Positions 698 to 29,519 of a DNA stretch of 64,000 bases are shown here, in pieces. Under the pieces are notes generated by a model. That model searched no databases. It was not told the origin of the DNA and saw only the letters and a list, made by a program, of their open reading frames with translations. Where the stretch lies: the sequence record NC_111505.1, one strand, 5' to 3'. Both the position numbers and the translations under genes were made by a program. Source of the stretch: a phage. The first letter of the stretch is position 1. Every line of letters begins with the position of its first letter.

Positions 698-1924
698 TTA
701 AAAAGGTATGTCATCACAGAACTCGTACTGTGCCGGATTCTGATCCATCGGGTCATCTCCGTCATCATCTACAGGAGGGGCGTCTACAGTGTTTTGCTGT
801 GGAGTGACTTCCTGTTTGGCAGCTTGAGGTTCTTGATGCTCAGTAGTCCCAGCACCATTCTTGATCCAATCATACAACGGTTCAGCAAGATTAGTCAAGA
901 CATCTTTTGCCTCTGCAGTAATTGCTGCTGCAAAATCATCAACTTTCGTTTTCTTGTCAATACGGCGACAAGCGTTCAATACCGCATTACCAACACTGGC
1001 ACCTACTTCATCTTCAGTTCGATTGGTGGCTTGAGCGTACTCTTTCTTAAGCTCGATGGTGACCACGTGCAATGTTTTAGCCACATCTAAAGGGCTGTCA
1101 ACCTTGAATCCGCGATCTAGGATGATCTGCAACGCATTAATGCTGTGCCCCGTCTCTACACCAATAGGGTCGTAAGAGGATTTACGCTTTCCACCAGAAC
1201 CTTGAGTACCGTTCTCTGCTTTAGGCGGGTAGGCCTTGAAGCCGCTGATAATATTCCCGGTGTCTTTGTCAACAATAGCTGCAACACGACCGCCAACCAC
1301 CAGGTCTTTAAGCTGCTCATCAGAGACAACCATAGCACCTTCGCCAATCTTGTGGTCATTGACAGTAACCACGTTACCAACAATCTGAGTCACATCCCCA
1401 TAGATGCGTAAAACGTCCTGATTGGCATTCTGCTGGGGTTTCTGCTTCTGGCCTTGTGATTGTGTGCCTTGTTGCTGTTTTTGTTGCTGTGGAGCTGCTG
1501 GAGCCTCTCCTGCCCCCAGCTTAACCATTTTAGCCAATGAGCCTTTGTAGTAGGTCTTACCGTTATGCTCATTTGCCTTTAAAGGAATATTTACGATCCA
1601 TCCTGGCGTTACTGTTTCCCACTTGTCATCAATTTTAACAGAGACGGAATCTTGATGACCAGGTTTGAGCAATTTATCACCCATGCTGATCCAAACTTCT
1701 TCACCACCTTGAAGTAGGTTATCAGAAGAATCCAGTTCAGAAATCAGTAAGGAGATGGTGTGACTGGACTCGATTTTCTTACCTTGCCACACAGTGGTTT
1801 TAATACCTGTTGTAGGATCAGCACCTTTGATAGGTTTGATGCTGACACGTTTAATCATACCGTGAGCCAGTAAAACAGTTTCACGCGGATTCATCGGGTT
1901 GGCAAATTGTTGAATAACGCTCAT
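698..1924 (-). CDS. putative ssDNA-binding protein with E. coli SSB-like acidic C-terminal tip
   Basis: protein ends ...DDDGDDPMDQNPAQYEFCDDIPF (SSB tip is DDDIPF); Q-rich linker; start set at internal ATG 1924 because it overlaps the upstream stop (TAATG) and has AAGGAG upstream; N-terminal OB fold not verified. Confidence 0.5.
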   Translation of the reverse strand: MSVIQQFANPMNPRETVLLAHGMIKRVSIKPIKGADPTTGIKTTVWQGKKIESSHTISLLISELDSSDNLLQGGEEVWISMGDKLLKPGHQDSVSVKIDDKWETVTPGWIVNIPLKANEHNGKTYYKGSLAKMVKLGAGEAPAAPQQQKQQQGTQSQGQKQKPQQNANQDVLRIYGDVTQIVGNVVTVNDHKIGEGAMVVSDEQLKDLVVGGRVAAIVDKDTGNIISGFKAYPPKAENGTQGSGGKRKSSYDPIGVETGHSINALQIILDRGFKVDSPLDVAKTLHVVTIELKKEYAQATNRTEDEVGASVGNAVLNACRRIDKKTKVDDFAAAITAEAKDVLTNLAEPLYDWIKNGAGTTEHQEPQAAKQEVTPQQNTVDAPPVDDDGDDPMDQNPAQYEFCDDIPF

Positions 1925-2289: not shown

Positions 2290-2372
2290 TATGGAATCTC
2301 CGATTTTATTTGAACAACATAGAAGGAGACACTATTTTAGCATCTCCTTCTGCAAATTACAATAGGTATTTG

Positions 2373-2618
2373 TTAGCCAATCACTTCAAAAGTTCCCCAA
2401 TTCCCGTCCAGCAGGCAGGTGATCGGATCACCATCATCGTCAATTATTTCAAAGTTTTCAACATCCAGAGTATGGTCATCGAACACAATACTTTTGTCAC
2501 CACCGCCAGAAACAACAGTGTATTCCTTACCTTGAGTCAAGTTTTGACACCCTTTGCCACCAAAACCCACTTCAACACAACGTACTTTCTGTCCTGCGCG
2601 AGCAACTACTTCAGTCAT
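2373..2618 (-). CDS. small hypothetical protein (acidic DDDGD motif)
   Basis: 81-aa ORF; IIDDDGDPITC motif resembles the small paralog family at 3.3-5.1 kb. Confidence 0.45.
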   Translation of the reverse strand: MTEVVARAGQKVRCVEVGFGGKGCQNLTQGKEYTVVSGGGDKSIVFDDHTLDVENFEIIDDDGDPITCLLDGNWGTFEVIG

Positions 2619-2635
2619 CTTAAGGTCTCCTGATA

Positions 2636-2956
2636 TTAATCGTCAAGTTCAAAATAGATTTTAACAGCTTCGTCGAAGATTGGAATCCCGATGTTGTTGA
2701 TAAGCTGCCAAACTACCATATCTTTTCCTGGATCTGGGAGAATGTCAACCTTTCTCCATGCGCTGTAGATCCAGTTTGGACCACCTTCTGCGCTAACTGG
2801 AAGATTTTCACCAGCTTCCTGCAGATACTTATACAGCAAAAGATATTCTGGGTACTCTAGAACACTATCCTCTGTGGTATACAGTAGTTCACGGTATACT
2901 TTCAGGAACCCTTCTGGTGTAATGTTTTCAGTCTTCATTTGCTGCTTCTCCTGCAT
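2636..2956 (-). CDS. hypothetical protein
   Basis: 106-aa ORF; start may be the internal Met near 2938. Confidence 0.4.
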   Translation of the reverse strand: MQEKQQMKTENITPEGFLKVYRELLYTTEDSVLEYPEYLLLYKYLQEAGENLPVSAEGGPNWIYSAWRKVDILPDPGKDMVVWQLINNIGIPIFDEAVKIYFELDD

Positions 2957-3332
2957 TCATCAGATCTGCCATAGCGTCACCCACGAATAGGACAACCACG
3001 TCGTTGACAGCGTCAGCATCATCTTTATTAATGTTGCTGAATTTGGGGCACACTGCAATGACCATATATACCCCGTTGCCCAACTGAACAGTGCGTGTAG
3101 TGCACATCAGTGTGGTGTTTGTGCCTTCTTTAAAGGCAAATCCTTGCAGACGTTCTTCCAGAGAGTCGCCTGTTGATTTCAACAAGGCAAGATCGCCCAA
3201 TGCGTAGGTAGTGTCCTCATAGGTCAGTCCAGAGGTCAGTGTTGCCTTTCCATCAGAAACTATAATAACCCCATCGGCACCGTCAAGCTCGGAGGCTTCA
3301 AAGATATTGATATCCCAAATGTTTTTCATCAC
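2928..3332 (-). CDS. hypothetical protein
   Basis: 134-aa ORF. Confidence 0.45.
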   Translation of the reverse strand: MMKNIWDINIFEASELDGADGVIIVSDGKATLTSGLTYEDTTYALGDLALLKSTGDSLEERLQGFAFKEGTNTTLMCTTRTVQLGNGVYMVIAVCPKFSNINKDDADAVNDVVVLFVGDAMADLMNAGEAANED

Positions 3333-3661
3333 TCTGCCTCATCATCTAAGTAATCATCAAGAGAGGTGAAGATTTCACCGAAGTATTCTAAGATTTCTAG
3401 CTCGCGTGTGGTGCAGCAAACATAATCTCCCTGGTCGTCCTTGATAGTAGCCTCTTTACCCAGCACATCCACTTCAAATTCGTCGTTCAACAGGACGGCC
3501 CCTGTGTAAACTTTGTCAGCTGTGCAGTCCCGAAAAGCAGAGTCCTTTTCCAGATAGTCTGGCTTAACCTTGGCTTTAATTCGTTGATATTGTTTGGTCA
3601 TTGCTGTGGTCCCCTTTCGTTTTGATAGGGCCATTATATTAGGCCCCATCACTGTTGTCAA
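3329..3661 (-). CDS. small paralog family protein
   Basis: 110 aa; shares FRDCT...KDDQGDYVCCT motif with 3665..3919. Confidence 0.5.
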   Translation of the reverse strand: MTTVMGPNIMALSKRKGTTAMTKQYQRIKAKVKPDYLEKDSAFRDCTADKVYTGAVLLNDEFEVDVLGKEATIKDDQGDYVCCTTRELEILEYFGEIFTSLDDYLDDEAE

Positions 3662-3664
3662 GTA

Positions 3665-3919
3665 TTAATGTTCAGGTTTTACAAAAACTACTTCATTAAC
3701 AGTGCACCAGACAGAGTCTCCTTCATCATCTTTAAAGGTAAGGCACTGGGCTGAGTTTTCCAGCTCATCAATCTCTTCTTGTGATAAAGGGGCCCCTTCT
3801 TCCAGAAGGGCTTTTACCAGAGGGTTCTCACAAAACTCTGCTTCATAAATTGCACCGACTGTGCAATCCCTCAAAGCCCGGTCATTTGCAACACATTCTG
3901 GCTTCAAAGTAATTTTCAT
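3665..3919 (-). CDS. small paralog family protein
   Basis: 84 aa; LRDCT...KDDEGDSVWCT. Confidence 0.5.
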   Translation of the reverse strand: MKITLKPECVANDRALRDCTVGAIYEAEFCENPLVKALLEEGAPLSQEEIDELENSAQCLTFKDDEGDSVWCTVNEVVFVKPEH

Positions 3920-3995
3920 CTTGGCAGTCTCCTTAGTTATTTAAAAATCAACGCTCTGTTTGTGTGAAGCATCTTATACCTAATCTTACTTCTTG

Positions 3996-4394
3996 TCAAT
4001 GACTATTTTCAATCATCCACACAGGGTCTAGGTAAATTTGTTGGCGTTTTGCCCAATGACAAACTTCATTGTACATCTGAATCTCTTTGTCCGTCAGTTC
4101 ACGAATAGGCTCATCTATACCCTCATTTTTGTGGTAATCCCATTCGGCATCGATTTCCCACAACCATGACTTACGATCTTCACGTTTACGCACACAGAAG
4201 TCCCCAGGACGGCCTGCCAGTGCATTTAAGAACTCGTTCTCCGCTCGCTCCTGGAGAATACTAAGGAGCAAAACGTTGGAGCATGACCGCAAAATATGCT
4301 TCAGCTCACAATCATCGATCTCAACTTCAATACGTTGCTTGACTGTGTGGGTACCTTTTACTAACATTCTGCCTCCTCTAGACAAACTCTGCAA
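3996..4394 (-). CDS. hypothetical protein
   Basis: 132-aa ORF; true start possibly internal. Confidence 0.4.
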   Translation of the reverse strand: MQSLSRGGRMLVKGTHTVKQRIEVEIDDCELKHILRSCSNVLLLSILQERAENEFLNALAGRPGDFCVRKREDRKSWLWEIDAEWDYHKNEGIDEPIRELTDKEIQMYNEVCHWAKRQQIYLDPVWMIENSH

Positions 4395-4572
4395 GGGTTG
4401 TGTTGTTCACTGCACCGCAGTAGATGGAATACCCCAACCCATTATGGTGCAGAAACCACGGCACACCTTGGTCATCCTTCACGTATACATCTCCATTTTC
4501 CGTAAAGGGCCAATACTCCTCTCCGAGGGTAAAATACCTACTCATACCTTCAGCCAGATACTTTACTTTCAT
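4378..4572 (-). CDS. small paralog family protein
   Basis: 64 aa; KDDQGVPWFLHHNGLGYSIY motif. Confidence 0.45.
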   Translation of the reverse strand: MKVKYLAEGMSRYFTLGEEYWPFTENGDVYVKDDQGVPWFLHHNGLGYSIYCGAVNNTTLAEFV

Positions 4573-4796
4573 AGATCCTCTTCAACAGCTACAAACTTGG
4601 CAAGTAGGGTGGTTCCATAGATATGATACTCACCATTTGCCAGATGGGAGATAAACCAGGCAACACCTTCCTCGTCTTCGATCATATTGTTCCTGCGATC
4701 CTTATCGTAGTAAACCTTGTAGACCTTACCTTCTTCAAAGAATGACAGGTCTGTCATCTTTTCTTCTACAAACGTCGCTTTAACCAAAGTTGTCAT
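4569..4796 (-). CDS. small paralog family protein
   Basis: 75 aa; EDEEGVAWFISHLANGEYHIY motif. Confidence 0.5.
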   Translation of the reverse strand: MTTLVKATFVEEKMTDLSFFEEGKVYKVYYDKDRRNNMIEDEEGVAWFISHLANGEYHIYGTTLLAKFVAVEEDL

Positions 4797-5077
4797 TGAT
4801 CTGCCTCCTTCTTGTTGAGCCGGAACACTGCAATAATAGCATTTCCAAGATGCAGTGTCAAATCATTTCCCAGATACCATAACATTCCACGGTCATCTTT
4901 AATGAAAGGGTAACAATCCGGTGCCTTCCAGACATTATACACTTTGCCGACCTGAAAGAAATCAGGCCCTGTTGGAATTTTAGTACCTGGCCACACTTGA
5001 GACACCTGAACGCACTCTACCTGCATAATAACAGGAATAGTCATGGAGGTAAATGTTTTTGTCGGTTCTACTACCAT
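4793..5077 (-). CDS. small paralog family protein
   Basis: KDDRGMLWYLGNDLTLHLGN motif; start moved to the internal ATG (track start 5167) because GAGGAG lies 6 nt upstream and the longer ORF would overlap polymerase exon 2. Confidence 0.45.
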   Translation of the reverse strand: MVVEPTKTFTSMTIPVIMQVECVQVSQVWPGTKIPTGPDFFQVGKVYNVWKAPDCYPFIKDDRGMLWYLGNDLTLHLGNAIIAVFRLNKKEADQ

Positions 5078-5126: not shown

Positions 5127-5480
5127 TTAGTGACAATCGCCCCAGTTACGACCACACAAGTATTCACCTGTGATCTGGAACGGAACGCCCATCATTTTAG
5201 AAGCTTGCCAGAAGCAATGCACCACCATTTCACCCACAGGGCTCCAGATAAGTTCAAGCTTTCCGTCATCGTTCAGAATAGGATCGTACACCGTGTTTCC
5301 GTCTCTGTCAACCACTTCGTTTCCGTTCTCATCCTTGCGTGCCTTTTTGTACTTATGACCGTCAAACACATGAAGTTTGGCCTCCTGTTCTGCCTTAAAT
5401 GCTTCCAGTTCTTCAATTGTGTCGAAGGTGTACACAGTCTTATACTTAGGCGTGTCAGGGACTTGAAGTTGGTACTCATC
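5127..5480 (-). CDS. DNA polymerase, family A (T7-like), exon 2: motif C DE and C-terminal tail
   Basis: begins DEYQLQV, completing HDE with exon 1; ends ...GRNWGDCH, which I recall resembling the T7 gene 5 C-terminus (...GPNWAICH); the track ORF 5127..5483 is this exon with an artefactual TTG start. Confidence 0.6.
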   Translation of the reverse strand, partial: DEYQLQVPDTPKYKTVYTFDTIEELEAFKAEQEAKLHVFDGHKYKKARKDENGNEVVDRDGNTVYDPILNDDGKLELIWSPVGEMVVHCFWQASKMMGVPFQITGEYLCGRNWGDCH

Positions 5481-5756
5481 CAATAGTTCAGGTAGGTCGT
5501 TAAGCTACCCCGCACCATTACGTGCATAGCCATACGTTTTCACGTAGGATCGGACCATCTCATATTCCTATGATAAGCAACCACAGGAATCCTCCCATTT
5601 CGACCGCACTTGCTGGTCTACTTCCTTTCGGAATGGCCTCTGAGCGTTCGCTCTTTTGAGCGCTTCGTTGCGGATTACCTTGCCATAAGGTTTAGGCTTC
5701 CCGCAGTTAAAGAGGTTATTCGACATAGATTACTCTATGAAGCCACAATGTTATTT
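5481..5756 (-). ncRNA. candidate group I self-splicing intron (276 nt, no ORF) in the DNA polymerase gene
   Basis: exon 1 ends in U (CAU His); in-frame UAA three codons into the intron; guide-like UGUGG can pair with CCAU|A giving a G.U at the splice site; UGCGGGAA (P-like) can pair with AAUCCGCA (Q-like); hairpins with GUAA and GAAA loops; last intron nt is G; splicing rebuilds YYH|DEYQLQV. Confidence 0.6.
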
Positions 5757-8700
5757 ATGGTAATAAATAATACGACGAACACCTTCATCGTACCACCCAC
5801 GCTTCACCATTTGGTGGTGCATGAGTATCCCAACTAAGTCACACAACGATGCACCACCATTTTGTTGGTATGCATTAAGTAAAGAGTGTTTAGATCGAGT
5901 CCAGATGGCATGACCATCAAAAGAGTAGATAAACTTCTTACCTGTTGCTTCCCAGAATTTCTCCAGATCCTCTTTGCGCCCCTTAAGACCAGGGTTGGCA
6001 TCCCAAAGCGCATCGATTACCTTTTGCCCTAACTCTGGGGAGATATCCAGCATGTCTGCAACTTTATCTTTTTGTGCCCCGTACATAACACCGTACGTGA
6101 CAGGCTTACCATCGTTACGGGAAATCTCCTTGCCTGCTACAGAAGAGTAAGCTTTGGCGTTATTACAGTTACCGCACACTGCCACTTTACCATTCCTTCT
6201 CACAATGATTGCTCCAGAAGGGACGGTAACGCAATAAACCAAAGAACCACTCACCTCGACAGACTCTTTAGATAGTGTCAGCAACCCTGCTCTCTGTTTG
6301 CTACCAATCGTGATTCTGTGCTGTACGGAACGACCTTTTTTGTGAATCGCCACCGTATTATTCCGTAAACCACACTGAGTAGCCAGCGCAGACACAACCT
6401 CTACAGATTTCTTCCTGCACTCGGCCTGAGAGTAGTAGGCAACTTTTCCACCTTCGGAAGATACCCACCCGTCCCAGTTAGATAAAGAAGCTATAAACAG
6501 GTTTTTAGATTCTTTATCAAGGTCCATCAGGTTGTAGGTGAAATCCTTATTGCTGTCCAAAAACTCAAATACCCAGGACGGAACGTGGAATTGGAACCTT
6601 CTCGCCAGTAAGCCCCCTTTTGTGGTTTTCCCGCCCTGCTCTACATAACTAAGGCTTAGAGCAGAAAAAGTATCTAAAAGCGTTGCAACTTTTCTGCCCT
6701 TCCCGACCTGAATCCTGCACACGATGCTGCCGTCCTTATTTGTATGCAAGTGTCCATCATCGTGAATAGCAATAAGCAAATTAATCTGGGCAGGAGATAA
6801 GGTTGTATTCCCATAAAACTCTGCCGCATGGATAAACCTTCTTCCTGAATTAGACCCTTTACCTGCTTTCAGGTCTTTTGCCAAATCTTCAAACAATTTA
6901 TTGCTTCTGTGATCCACGGTCAGCATCCTGTGTTGATCTGTAACCATAAAATCCACACCGCTGTTGTGGAAATGATACATATCCCCACAATAACCACGCT
7001 TAACGTAATTTAATGGTGTAACAAGGTTCATCGACGAGGTGTTGTGATCGTACTGGAACACTTGTGTTCCCGGATCAAGATCTTCAAACCTCACCCACCC
7101 TTTCTCCGTGAGAATTTGTGTATCTCCTGAATAACAGTGTGCATCGCCGTTACTTACAACATCATAATACAAGCCGTTGTCGAACTCAAAGGCACCCCAA
7201 GCCCCGATAAGCTGCTCTAAGTTGGACCCGTCAATACCGATCTCAAAGTATCCTGGAGGAACGCCCCACAGACTACGCATCTCTTTACCCATAACCACTT
7301 TAGGAGATGGTTTAGGCATGTTTGCACAAATACTGTGTTTCTGTCTGGAAGTGTTTGTCAATCCAGAACTTTTAGCAGGAAGCTTGTGGTCAATCTTCAG
7401 ACGTGGATGATTAAGAAGACCAGTATCAACCTTATCCTCCTTGATTGGATCAAGTACCGATCTACGGTTTCGCAAGGATAACCACAAGACGATATCTTTA
7501 GCCATCTCTCCGTTCAACTTTTCAAGATTCGGACATAGGTGTCCAAACGTATCTTTCAGTTGCGGAGAAGTAATAAGCGCTCTGGCTTTTCTACGTATCT
7601 TCCCAAACACTTCCTTTTTAATCCTTTCTGAGTTAGGGAAGCTTCGGAACTTGTGCACGGTTGTCTGAAACTTAGCATCAGTTTTGTTCCAGAAGTTGAT
7701 AATTAGGTCACAATACTCTGACTCTAAAAGCTCGTCCATATATGCATATACTCGTGCATCAACATCAGCATCAGGCAGAGCTTTCTTCTTGCTGTCCTTG
7801 GTTACATCTTTAGTTCTCCACATTGTTGGGAGCCAACCAGCGCTGATCAAATATCGCTTAATATCGTCCTGGTTGCTGATCTTCATAGGTATCTTGCAGT
7901 CAGGCATCCGCTTCTGCTGCAGATCACTTATTGCCTGATCCATTAGTTCTTTAGGTAAAGGATGTGGTGTCGAGGTACCTTTAATATACCCCCTTAAGAA
8001 ATCAGCCATCTTATCGGGGTCTTTGCAGCCCATCTCTTCACACCATTTTATCCCCATTTTGCTGACATCTCCTGTGGAGGTAAAGGCTCGCTTAGGTGGG
8101 GCTTTGAATTCTAAAGCACTCATGTCCACAGGATAGCCAAGCTTGTCTTTTAACCATTTCCAACCGTTATTAGAGATTGTCCCATCTTGGTTAAACGGCT
8201 TTTCAGGGAACTTAGGCCGCTGAGACATTGATAGCTCTTTTAGAGGAAGTTGTGGTTCAACACGATCAGCGATCTCTTTCATCCACGCATCGCAGCGGTC
8301 ACGTAAAGCAATAGCCCCATCTATGTCGAAATACACACCCTGTCGAGCCTGCAGCTCCATCAGGAAATGCTGCAGCATGCCTCGGCGTAATGCATTCTTC
8401 CAGGTGATCTTCTTGAAGCCTTTCGGCTTCTCTTTGGCAGGATCGTACATAAAGTTCTGCATGTCAGATTTGCCGTAGAATACACCTTTTGATTCTGCTA
8501 CCAACTCCTTCCAGAGCAACTCCTGGATGATAACGTCCTCGAACACACGATCCACATACTTCCACAGCGGAAGCTCACGCCAGTCATCGATTTGAACTTT
8601 CTGGTTACCAAGGGCATAGCCCCATGCCATAAGGCCATGAGGCCCAACAGGTTGCATTTTCTTGGTAACTGGATTGAATACTGCGTCCGGACAACCTTTT

Positions 8701-9149
8701 GGCAAAGGGCGGTCAGGCCACAAGATTCGACTCATCGCCAACGTATCAAATAGATTAACTTGGTGGTCGTTGATAGTCCCCATGCATTTAGGATCACGGA
8801 ACATATCAAAATGAACACCGGATAATCTTTCCATCAGCATAAAGTCATAGCTGTAGCAGTTATGACAGTTCAAAGCCGTAGGTGACCAGTCTGAATTGCC
8901 TGTAAGCCAGCCTTCCAACTCTGAAAAATCTGCTATGCGAGCCTCAAAATCTTTATAAAGAGTTTTCTTTGCCAGAATAAAGTTCTTAGCCTTTTCTACA
9001 TCCTCTTCAGAGTAGTGTGTGCGGTCATTTAGAGGAAGGAACAGCATAAAACGGTTCTTATTCAGCTCTTTAAACAAACCGCAGTGATAATAAAGATCTG
9101 GATCTTCCAAAAGCCCGGAGGCCTCCAAGTCGAACGACCACATGCTCAT
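5757..9149 (-). CDS. DNA polymerase, family A (T7-like), exon 1 with embedded intein
   Basis: N-terminal exonuclease motif SFDLEASGL...HCG (T7 gp5-like); motif A IDGSNLEQLIGA; motif B RNDGKPVTYGVMYG; AAGGAG 8 nt upstream of ATG 9149; ORF stops 2 codons after the His of motif C. Confidence 0.85.
6168..7136 (-). mobile_element. intein (323 aa) with LAGLIDADG-type homing endonuclease domain, inside DNA polymerase
   Basis: inserted after GDAH between motifs A and B; block A CYSGDTQIL; block B TDQH; LAGLIDADG-like LLIAIHDDGH and FIASLSNWDGW; ends ...VAVCGN followed by Cys+1 (penultimate Gly, not His); flanking extein aligns with T7 NGDIHT. Confidence 0.75.
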
Positions 9150-25497: not shown

Positions 25498-25767
25498 ATG
25501 TTATTTATGGCAACAGAAGTAGTAATTAAAGCTGAACGCCCAGTTAAAAAAGCTATCAACACGTTTCCTGTAGGAACTATTGTGAGCATGATTACAGAGT
25601 CAGGTCGTGTATCTACACTGCTAATCGTGAAATCTGCATGCTCATCTTGTGTGTGGGCATATGATCTTGACGAGAAAGAACTGAAAGATTTTGTTGGAGA
25701 GCTGAAAGCAACAGAACTTGACGCTCGTATCGAAGTATTTGGTGAAACTATGGAGGAAGAGCAATGA
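25498..25767 (+). CDS. hypothetical protein
   Basis: 89-aa ORF. Confidence 0.45.
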   Translation: MLFMATEVVIKAERPVKKAINTFPVGTIVSMITESGRVSTLLIVKSACSSCVWAYDLDEKELKDFVGELKATELDARIEVFGETMEEEQ

Positions 25768-26027
25768 CCACAAAAATCACCATTGCAGAACCGAAAGCTA
25801 ACACGCAGCCTATCGAAAAGTTTAAATGCGGTGAGGTGGTAACATTCACACCTGACAATGAAGATGCCAAGATTTTCGCCATGGTTACAGCCGAGTGGAT
25901 GTGTGACAACACCACACAGGTTCTGCGTTTTGACACCTATCTTACAGATGAAATCAGGAACGACAAGATCGTGACTGGTGTAGATACTGAGATTGTTTTC
26001 TACAAGAGCTTCGTGGAGGGTTTCTAA
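25764..26027 (+). CDS. hypothetical protein
   Basis: 87-aa ORF, ATGA overlap with upstream gene. Confidence 0.45.
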   Translation: MTTKITIAEPKANTQPIEKFKCGEVVTFTPDNEDAKIFAMVTAEWMCDNTTQVLRFDTYLTDEIRNDKIVTGVDTEIVFYKSFVEGF

Positions 26028-26028
26028 T

Positions 26029-26265
26029 ATGGCAAGAATTCGTAAATTGTTCAACAATCAAACTGTGAAAGATTTTGAACCCGGAGAGATTCTGTATGTT
26101 CATGATGCAGATGACGAAGGAGAAGATCTTGTTATGCTACTAGGGCATGCTGCTGAGGACGGATGCATCCAGGCTGTTTTTCTTGAAACAGCTATGGTGC
26201 ACTGGATAGAGCTGGACCTGAAAGCACGAAAACCTAAAGCAGAGATCCTGATTTACGAAGATTAA
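26029..26265 (+). CDS. hypothetical protein
   Basis: start at internal ATG (MARIRKLF) with GGAGGG upstream. Confidence 0.45.
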   Translation: MARIRKLFNNQTVKDFEPGEILYVHDADDEGEDLVMLLGHAAEDGCIQAVFLETAMVHWIELDLKARKPKAEILIYED

Positions 26266-26281: not shown

Positions 26282-26731
26282 GTGTTGAGCAAACGTGAAT
26301 GCGACAGCATTAGCCTAAATTCTTATAAGAAACAATGGTTTGGGGTAGAAGTTTGCCGACTACGGCTCGGCTCCTACCTGAACTTCGTTTATTACGAGAG
26401 TGACAGTCGTATCGTTTCTTATGAAGTGTTTTACACTAAGAACACCTTCGAGCTGCGACGTAAGGTGGATGGCGGGAGAGCTACCACTCAGAATAACTGG
26501 GAAACTATTCTGCCTCCAGATGTTATAGGAAGCCCCCTGAATGTATCTGAAGATGAAAATCTTATGGTTCATGCTATGATGGGACTTGACAGCTTAGAGC
26601 TGGCGATCTATGATATGTCCATCGAAGCGGTTAAGCTGGACTACATCGAAAACACCTTAGAGGAAGGTATCAAGAAGTTTCTCGGTGAGAAATTGAAAGC
26701 CCACTTTCATAAGGAGCTATACCTGTTATGA
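26282..26731 (+). CDS. hypothetical protein
   Basis: 149-aa ORF. Confidence 0.45.
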   Translation: MLSKRECDSISLNSYKKQWFGVEVCRLRLGSYLNFVYYESDSRIVSYEVFYTKNTFELRRKVDGGRATTQNNWETILPPDVIGSPLNVSEDENLMVHAMMGLDSLELAIYDMSIEAVKLDYIENTLEEGIKKFLGEKLKAHFHKELYLL

Positions 26732-26973
26732 AGACCCGTAAAGAACGTAACAAGATTTTACCTTGTGCTCTCGAACACATGATGAAGTGCAGATCTATCT
26801 GGCACTCTGCCAAGGAGGGGCAGCATGTGGTTGTAGTTAGTGATAATGCCAACCCATTCGGTGATTATGTCACCATGATGACTCCATATATCCGCGACGG
26901 TGTTGTGGAAGTGGTTCCTTATAGCGGTCTGCATGAGAGGCATTTTGAAAGCACTTTGTTAGTGGAGCTATAA
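26728..26973 (+). CDS. hypothetical protein
   Basis: 81-aa ORF overlapping the upstream stop. Confidence 0.45.
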   Translation: MKTRKERNKILPCALEHMMKCRSIWHSAKEGQHVVVVSDNANPFGDYVTMMTPYIRDGVVEVVPYSGLHERHFESTLLVEL

Positions 26974-28948: not shown

Positions 28949-29052
28949 TCGATTTTAAGGCCTCAAACGAGGCCTGTGCCTTCATAAACTTCCTACCTAT
29001 GTGCGATTACCCTTCTGAATAAAATACCCTCTCAAATTGCTTAAAATTAAGC

Positions 29053-29081
29053 TTGACACTAACACCAGATTTATATATGAT
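29053..29081 (+). promoter_or_regulatory. sigma70-like promoter (TTGACA-17-TATGAT)
   Basis: consensus -35, 17-nt spacer, 5/6 -10, about 30 nt upstream of GAGGAG and ATG 29112. Confidence 0.5.
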
Positions 29082-29111
29082 TATCTCACCAACCCAACAG
29101 AGGAGATTGTC

Positions 29112-29519
29112 ATGGATAATCTTGCAAGTGTAAACGTAGAAATTGTTAAACTAAAGTTCTTGGGCTTTCGAGACCCTAATTCTCTAACAGCTATACTGAT
29201 GGATACCCACTTCACACCGGGGAAAGAGTACACTGCCTTCCGTTATACTCACGGAGATCACGAATCGGCCTATAGTGTGAATACAAACCTCGGTGAGGGA
29301 TATTTCATCAGAGATATCACAGATCACTTGTGGGGTATGTGGGAATTGGTGGGAGAAGAGAATAAATCCCTTCCCAAAGAGATTTGGGTGCACACCTTCC
29401 ACACAGGGAAGTTTGGTGGAACGGAGCATAAATCTATCCACTATGATGAAGGAAGTGCCATCAAGCAACAAGCTGTGCTTGGCGGATCTGTAGAAAAATT
29501 TGTTAAATGCGAGGACTGA
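29112..29519 (+). CDS. hypothetical protein
   Basis: start at internal ATG (MDNLASV) downstream of the promoter; track ORF begins upstream of it. Confidence 0.45.
   Translation: MDNLASVNVEIVKLKFLGFRDPNSLTAILMDTHFTPGKEYTAFRYTHGDHESAYSVNTNLGEGYFIRDITDHLWGMWELVGEENKSLPKEIWVHTFHTGKFGGTEHKSIHYDEGSAIKQQAVLGGSVEKFVKCED

Follow-up and report, generated by a model that had tools for sequence, protein, structure and literature searches.

We describe here a diversified family of small phage genes in a 64,000-nucleotide stretch of NC_111505.1 (hereafter, the window), which comes from a Vequintavirus (rV5-like coliphage) with ~98% identity to phage FV3. Nine open reading frames (ORFs) occupy positions 2373-5077, all on the minus strand; they correspond to FV3_00197–00205, each annotated as 'hypothetical', and carry the labels A to I here in order of increasing coordinate. 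On the evidence of sequence profiles, A, G, H and I can be firmly assigned to one family of long-diverged proteins built on a phage-specific beta-barrel domain of ~60 residues, and D and E are probably divergent members of the same family. The predicted structure of H superposes on the six-stranded small barrel of Gp54, an accessory protein that binds a defence sensor. Altogether, we lean towards an account in which this diverged multi-copy barrel family would act in counter-defence or host takeover, our confidence being high for the family and its fold and low for its function.

One domain family in six of the nine genes

A preliminary description of this DNA had proposed a tandem family of at least five, possibly seven, small ORFs with overlapping stops and starts. 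The ORFs and their overlaps were confirmed: ATGA stop/start overlaps are found at I/H and H/G, base 3329 is common to C and D, and B and C overlap by 29 nt. The family itself is real and diversified, with six members (A, D, E, G, H and I), but it does not extend to seven or more.

Direct comparison of the cluster proteins backs only two groups, D–E and G–H–I. Blastp gives expectation (E) values of 1e-9 for D–E, 5e-6 for G–H, 3e-5 for H–I and 2e-3 for G–I, and hhalign of the orthologue profiles gives 1e-10 for D–E, 2e-5 for H–I and 9e-5 for G–H; every cross-group pair remains at hhalign E values of 0.03–0.5. Such cross-group comparisons could not settle the question, because the orthologue sets are little diverse (effective number of sequences, Neff, about 1.3). 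A, D, E, G, H and I all contain the motif [KEI]D[DE]xG, which is replaced by KDNFG in most G orthologues. Elsewhere it occurs once besides D, E and I in 72 non-overlapping window ORFs (20,514 amino acids, aa), a post hoc count on a crude set from which A, G and H were lost.

The bridge between the groups is provided by proteins of other phages. An exhaustive search with a hidden Markov model (HMM) of the G/H/I alignment, run against 1.84 billion representatives, returned the orthologue-like P0107 (G-like) and P0109 (H-like) together with P0110, P0113, P0114 and P0115, in each of which a unit of ~60 aa occurs 2–5 times in tandem, with the form vG-D-x-l-k-C … F/W-T-x-G-K-E-Y-x-V … l-x-V-x-D-D-x-G-D. 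None of these four tandem-repeat proteins has a Pfam match above cut-off. P0108 (ankyrin repeats), P0111, P0112 and P0116 (retrotransposon) were rejected as repeat-summed artefacts of the same search.

We then relied on a reciprocal comparison, with an HMM of 13 outside repeats containing no window sequence, searched against 1840 ORFs from the window and related loci. G, H and I were found at E values of about 1e-5 and A at 1e-3 (16.1 bits), along with gp057 of Salmonella phage SSE121 (1e-7) and the neighbouring four-repeat protein L009 2550-3626; no other window ORF reached E ≤ 0.01, the next being 29037-29519 at 0.029. The real scores of A, G, H and I (16–22 bits) were reached by 0/3000 shuffled sequences, that of E by 11/3000 and that of D by 180/3000, the HMM scores of the last two being 3–4 bits and split by an insert. 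B, C, F, four small plus-strand genes of the window and Gp54 scored ~0 or not at all (C, 0.5 bits, reached by 530/3000 shuffles).

These assignments agree with hhalign comparisons to a profile of 19 domains from outside Vequintavirus, from which P0107 and P0109 were left out because they are G/H orthologue-like. The E value is 4e-10 for G, H and I combined (probability 97%), 9e-8 for G, 9e-7 for H, 7e-7 for I (92%) and 8e-6 for A (84%; 52 columns). For D/E it is 1.5e-4 (51%), with both motif segments aligned in the right order across the insert. The seven controls together give 0.05–0.8: B 0.81, C 0.076, F 0.68 and the four plus-strand genes 0.05–0.6. In a local HMM that was iterated, the third and fourth iterations absorbed A and made its scores circular, and only reps.hmm, it1, it2 and the 19-domain profile were used.

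Third-party PHROG models are also in agreement with one family, because the repeat proteins bridge the families of A, G and H/I. Indeed, A matches phrog_4927 (1e-26), G matches phrog_12802 (5e-48), and H and I match phrog_3523 weakly. Among the repeat proteins, phrog_4927 is matched by P0113 (2e-18), P0114 (6e-10) and L009 2550-3626 (5e-12), phrog_3523 is matched with E values down to 4e-54, and P0110 matches phrog_12802 at 3.6e-6.

By sequence comparison, B, C and F are unrelated interspersed genes. B matches PF23885 (DUF7238) with 31 bits against a cut-off of 27 (E value 3e-7), and F shows no link to the family by blastp, HMM or hhalign. Apart from DUF7238 for B, a Pfam scan of A–I gave only sub-threshold DUF matches, and NCBIfam gave no match. 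The preliminary description had also connected the cluster to small plus-strand genes at 25.5–26.3 kb, a link that finds no support: blastp and hhalign detected no relationship of the four genes there (25498-25767, 25764-26027, 25993-26265 and 26728-26973) to each other or to A–I. They match separate PHROGs (10698, 12861, 12046 and 4868, function unknown), and 26282-26731 (plus strand), which lies between them, matches a PHROG annotated 'tail protein'.

Two further ORFs, 29037-29519 (plus strand) and FV3_00148 (L010 2171-2422, outside the window), carry the family-like segments HFTPGKEYTAFRY… and GFTIGNTYEAVV…DCDDDGDD. They are marginal, with E values of 0.01–0.05 in ~1840 ORFs, and may be additional, very divergent members.

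In P0032, an orthologue of I, an internal stretch of ~11 residues immediately ahead of the D-D-x-G hairpin is duplicated (KAPDCHPFIKE / KAPNCYPFIKD), which illustrates on a small scale that protein length is still changing in the family.

Predicted structures

H was modelled from 28 G/H/I sequences with a mean predicted local distance difference test (pLDDT) score of 90.8. The model has six strands, with a short helix in the connection between strand 1 and strand 2, and it superposes on the six-stranded small barrel of Gp54 (PDB 9AXB). This prediction is independent of the Gp54 structure, since the entry was released in 2024 and templates were not used. The model of E (pLDDT 76) is SH3-like, a five-stranded barrel that superposes on SH3 domains, so that the structure prediction suggested in the preliminary description yields a Gp54-like fold for H but not for E. 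Read separately, both models place G-x-x-Y on strand 2 and D-D-x-G in the hairpin turn that follows strand 3.

A Foldseek search of the H model against BFVD returned many uncharacterised phage proteins of 60–80 aa with template-modelling (TM) scores of 0.7–0.8, among them proteins of T1-like phages (four in NBD2 alone), Cronobacter phage CR9, phAPEC8 and Enterococcus phages. This suggests that the 'rare' Gp54 barrel may be common among phage accessory proteins, including tandem-repeat forms. A profile search of the sequences of solved structures with G/H/I gave no meaningful match, and 9AXB is invisible by sequence.

Gene layout, selection and expression signals

The region is matched by 117 phage records, the closest being Escherichia phages VB-EcoM-WM (98.7%) and FV3 (98.4%), both of the genus Vequintavirus. 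Sixteen 'Campylobacter phage' records of the MG0656xx series (e.g. MG065655.1; host C. jejuni) also carry it (identity about 88–91%); these appear to be rV5-type coliphages, mislabelled or from contamination.

All nine ORFs are intact, without internal stops, and keep an identical gene order in rV5 and phage A6-1. The ratio of non-synonymous to synonymous substitution rates (dN/dS) against these two phages is 0.01–0.27, and all nine are under purifying selection. A–I are therefore real genes. By the values of Table 1, evolution is faster in A, D, E, G and H than in B, I and the replication genes. Five of the six family members are strongly acidic, with an isoelectric point (pI) of 4.2–4.8 and a net charge of -4 to -12; I is near-neutral (pI 6.5).

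Table 1. Genes and predicted promoter sites of the cluster and its flanks (dN/dS against rV5 and A6-1)
Feature	Position	Strand	Length (aa)	FV3 / rV5 name	dN/dS	Description
Gene A	2373-2618	-	81	FV3_00197 / gp211	0.2	Family member
Gene B	2636-2956	-	106		0.01	Interspersed, non-member; Pfam DUF7238
Gene C	2928-3329	-	133			Interspersed, non-member; PHROG 8284
Gene D	3329-3601	-	90	FV3_00200 / gp214	0.25	Probable divergent member
Gene E	3665-3919	-	84	FV3_00201 / gp215	0.12	Probable divergent member; ~25-residue helical insert
Gene F	3996-4367	-	123			Interspersed, non-member; PHROG 6273, function unknown
Gene G	4378-4572	-	64	FV3_00203 / gp217	0.10	Family member
Gene H	4569-4796	-	75	FV3_00204 / gp218	0.14	Family member; modelled copy
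Gene I	4793-5077	-	94	FV3_00205 / gp219	0.01–0.02	Member with N-terminal extension; ATG 5077
Promoter TTGACA-17-TATAAT	3661-3633	-				Between E and D; 12/12, the only such site in the window
Promoter-like TTGACA-17-TATTAT with TG	4861-4833	-				In the 3' part of I, upstream of H; 11/12
Promoter-like TTGACA-17-TAAGAT	3999-3971	-				Upstream of E; 10/12
SSB-like gene	698-1924	-	408		0.04	phrog_4477 (function unknown)
Polymerase C-terminal fragment	5127-5483	-	118		0.02–0.07	Separate ORF
DNA polymerase	5751-9149	-	1132			Probable intein

The three promoter sites are predictions, made as matches to the sigma-70 consensus, and would fit expression by the host RNA polymerase. The annotation of rV5 places a sigma-70 promoter, P220, at the same relative position, before the E orthologue. 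The starts of D used in FV3 (106 aa) and in the ORF list (110 aa) overlap the perfect promoter between E and D. ATG 3601, which has AAGGGG 8–9 nt upstream, is most likely the real start; the resulting 90-aa form is more frequent in the database than any other (P0056, 282 member sequences). Just downstream of the stop of A, a 14-bp stem-loop is found at 2321-2351 (minus strand); lacking a clear T-tract, it would be a weak terminator of the cluster at best.

Neighbouring genes

The cluster lies directly downstream of the DNA polymerase. The main polymerase ORF is longer than its counterparts in rV5 and A6-1 (775–925 aa) and contains an insert with a weak Hint-domain match (residues 672-706, E value 1.3e-3, below cut-off); the polymerase therefore probably contains an intein. 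Its C-terminus is encoded by the separate ORF of Table 1, and FV3 instead has an HNH endonuclease gene between the polymerase pieces.

On the other side, downstream of A, the single-stranded-DNA-binding protein (SSB)-like gene encodes a protein with a Gln-rich linker, no Pfam match and an end ...DDDGDDPMDQNPAQYEFCDDIPF, that is, an acidic SSB-type tail (...YEFCDDIPF). This end resembles DDDIPF, the acidic C-terminal tail of SSB in E. coli. The protein is probably a phage single-stranded-DNA-binding protein or an SSB-tail mimic. Taken from the polymerase to the SSB-like gene, the locus is a replication module and not a demonstrated immediate-early region.

Distribution of the family

Each protein is genus-restricted, and so the orthologues add little information. 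Word-seeded searches of 5.8 billion proteins with G/H/I and A/D/E found nothing beyond orthologues of at least 67% identity, and tblastn of H and E against cultured phages found Vequintavirus records only (115). In all 115+ Vequintavirus genomes the members are labelled 'hypothetical protein'.

The preliminary description had also called for a comparison of copy number across related phages. The gene order is kept in rV5 and A6-1. In the syntenic regions of five other Vequintavirinae (LNA4, KPP-1, SSE121, CR3 and Av-05), the subfamily HMMs gave no match, and the broader repeat profile detected a member in SSE121 only, as a single copy (gp057), with none detected in KPP-1, CR3, Av-05 and LNA4.

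In other phages, of Gram-negative and Gram-positive hosts, the domain occurs singly or as 2–5 tandem copies. P0114 gives tblastn matches in 45 Enterococcus phage records. Bas11, the phage that encodes Gp54, itself has further small proteins with the motif (gp41, gp48, gp61, gp71 and gp79), with marginal E values.

Possible function and alternative explanations

A counter-defence or host takeover role of the family is plausible, by analogy with Gp54. Gp54 of Bas11 adopts a rare six-stranded barrel, is non-essential and has no known function (PMC11578894). It directly activates CapRelSJ46 by binding its pseudo-zinc-finger antitoxin domain, which is unfolded and clamped with the strand 1–strand 2 loop; one or two residue differences are enough to abolish this activation in Gp54 homologues (PMC11578894). 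Its authors suggest that it may inhibit another defence (PMC11578894). Since the fold of H matches that of an accessory protein that binds a defence sensor, it fits an accessory or counter-defence flavour.

We propose that the conserved motif would act as a structural skeleton made of glycine turns and core aromatic residues. In the domain, strand 1 (often vG-D-x-l-k-C) is followed by a variable loop, by strand 2 with F/W-T-x-G-K-x-Y, and by the tight acidic D-D-x-G hairpin of strands 3–4. Binding specificity could reside in the variable loop that joins strands 1 and 2 and in the C-terminal strands, and each paralogue might then be a small protein-binding module directed at a different host or defence protein. 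As with Gp54, a module of this kind could itself be recognised by a CapRel-type sensor.

Several observations weigh against this proposal. First, Gp54 has no known role of its own, so that what carries over by analogy is its fold and its habit of binding, not a function, and the family has no match to a known anti-defence protein. Second, the relationship to Gp54 is not seen at the sequence level: the Pfam model PF25180 (Gp54; gathering score 27 bits), which scores Gp54-Bas11 at 116 bits, gives no match to A–I at E values up to 1. The hhalign comparison of G/H/I with 13 Gp54 homologues reaches only 0.05, over 52 columns and in full-length register (F-x-x-G aligned with Gp54 G24, and G-x-x-W with W43), and that of the Gp54 set with the outside-only family profile gives 0.3. 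PF25180 does not recognise the family by sequence, yet H, as modelled, has the Gp54 fold. Third, in the 1.84-billion library, repeat-summed scores yielded plainly spurious matches (P0108, P0111, P0112 and P0116), and single G/H/I–repeat domain matches (about 23–26 bits) are not significant alone; the family is therefore argued from the reciprocal and small-database searches and from the PHROG matches. Finally, I is as constrained as the polymerase, unlike a gene engaged in an arms race, and a replication role would also agree with the genomic position of the cluster and with the contexts of two repeat proteins.

Indeed, the main alternative, although we consider it rather unlikely, is that the barrels are replisome accessory modules. 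Rather than being aimed at host defences, they would dock onto replication proteins of the phage or the host (polymerase, helicase-primase, the SSB-like protein, nucleotide-metabolism enzymes) and modulate DNA synthesis. Position favours it. The cluster stands between the DNA polymerase (5127-9149) and the gene of the 408-aa protein with the SSB-type tail (...CDDIPF). Moreover, a 53-kb metagenomic phage contig has the gene of P0113 between those for DnaB, Toprim primase and RecA; a Prim-Pol gene is found close to P0110 and the four-repeat paralogue next to it; and in one case a single family domain forms a fusion with a DUF3310 / gp1.7-like nucleotide-kinase domain. Against it speak genus restriction and rates of evolution: KPP-1, CR3, Av-05 and LNA4 share the polymerase and the helicase with no member detected downstream of the polymerase, the replisome is conserved throughout the subfamily while the proteins are confined to the genus, and the polymerase and the SSB-like gene evolve more slowly than most members. 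In addition, gp188 of Enterococcus phage EF24C, a tandem-domain gene, lies within a long run of small hypothetical genes and not among replication genes, and Gp54 is dispensable in the laboratory (PMC11578894).

An explanation that we find more doubtful still concerns the family itself. There might be two paralogue sets only, D–E and G–H–I, the motif in A and across sets being due to convergence among Asp/Gly-rich small hairpin proteins that place D-D-x-G after a G-x-x-Y strand. The cross-group comparisons of orthologue profiles, none of them significant, are compatible with this, as are the SH3-like rather than Gp54-like model of E, the post hoc definition of a motif that reads KDNFG in most G orthologues, and the fact that repeat-summed HMM scores can be spurious. 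Nonetheless, convergence does not readily account for a profile built outside Vequintavirus that singles out A together with G, H and I among 1840 ORFs, at scores that no shuffled sequence attains, nor for the hhalign values of A and D/E, which stand apart from those of the seven controls. The PHROG models further tie the families of A and G through the same repeat proteins.

Very improbable, finally, is that the proteins are small nucleic-acid-binding barrels (Sm, KOW, Tudor or Sso7d-like) regulating transcription or RNA in the phage programme: while the genes adjoin promoters, the strong acidity of five of the six proteins disfavours direct nucleic-acid binding, no DNA- or RNA-binding Pfam or NCBIfam match was found, and the closest structure, Gp54, is a protein binder (PMC11578894).

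Coming back to protein-binding barrels in counter-defence or host takeover, we can offer a broader conjecture, which we hold only tentatively. The Gp54 barrel could belong, as its first member with a solved structure, to a large and rapidly diverging superfamily of phage proteins, which ranges from coliphages to Enterococcus phages in single, multi-paralogue and tandem forms and provides a general scaffold for the binding of immune or housekeeping proteins of the host. Each of the six copies of the rV5 type might then neutralise a different target, and some of them might be sensed by CapRel-type receptors. If true, the CapRel trigger would be one member of a large class and no longer an oddity.

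Through this work, unannotated genes of Vequintavirus, a genus in which some phages are candidates for therapy or biocontrol, gain a domain and a predicted fold. The tie to Gp54-Bas11, the only solved relative, gives a structural handle and the idea of binding to defence or host proteins via the strand 1–strand 2 loop. The benefit in practice is modest and consists of a corrected start for D and six genes defined as a set. In the literature searched, no paper was found to mention the PHROG families involved or PF25180 apart from the Gp54 work, and the genome paper of rV5 mentions no paralogues.

Comparison with known systems

The domain is covered by PHROGs 4927, 3523, 10169, 3249 and 12802, all of 'unknown function', which include the A and G members and are all matched by the tandem-repeat proteins. 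PHROGs thus split the domain into many families, without a description as one domain, and there is no Pfam model; cultured examples are SSE121 gp057 and EF24C gp188.

Among small barrels, the SH3-like proteins (eukaryotic SH3, the integrase C-terminal domain, YorP and FeoA) differ from H, which has a sixth strand. They show no sequence relationship to the family, in which no proline-peptide-binding signature is found.

T7 Ocr is helical. It has no structural or sequence similarity to the proteins described here, and the analogy is purely functional. Small acidic accessory proteins of the Ocr type, which both inhibit and trigger defences, are likewise small, acidic and non-essential, and the analogy was drawn for Gp54 by its authors (PMC11578894).

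The closest comparison is with Gp54 itself (Bas11; PDB 9AXB; PF25180; Zhang et al., Nature 2024, PMC11578894), whose authors name SH3 as the nearest fold (PMC11578894). Gp54 has YHSG where the family has D-D-x-G, and it is a single-copy gene of Drexlerviridae, whereas three to six diverged copies are present here, in a Vequintavirus. The likeness lies in its size (66 aa, against 64–94 aa here), in its mildly acidic character and in the setting of its gene, a series of small hypothetical genes in a virulent coliphage.

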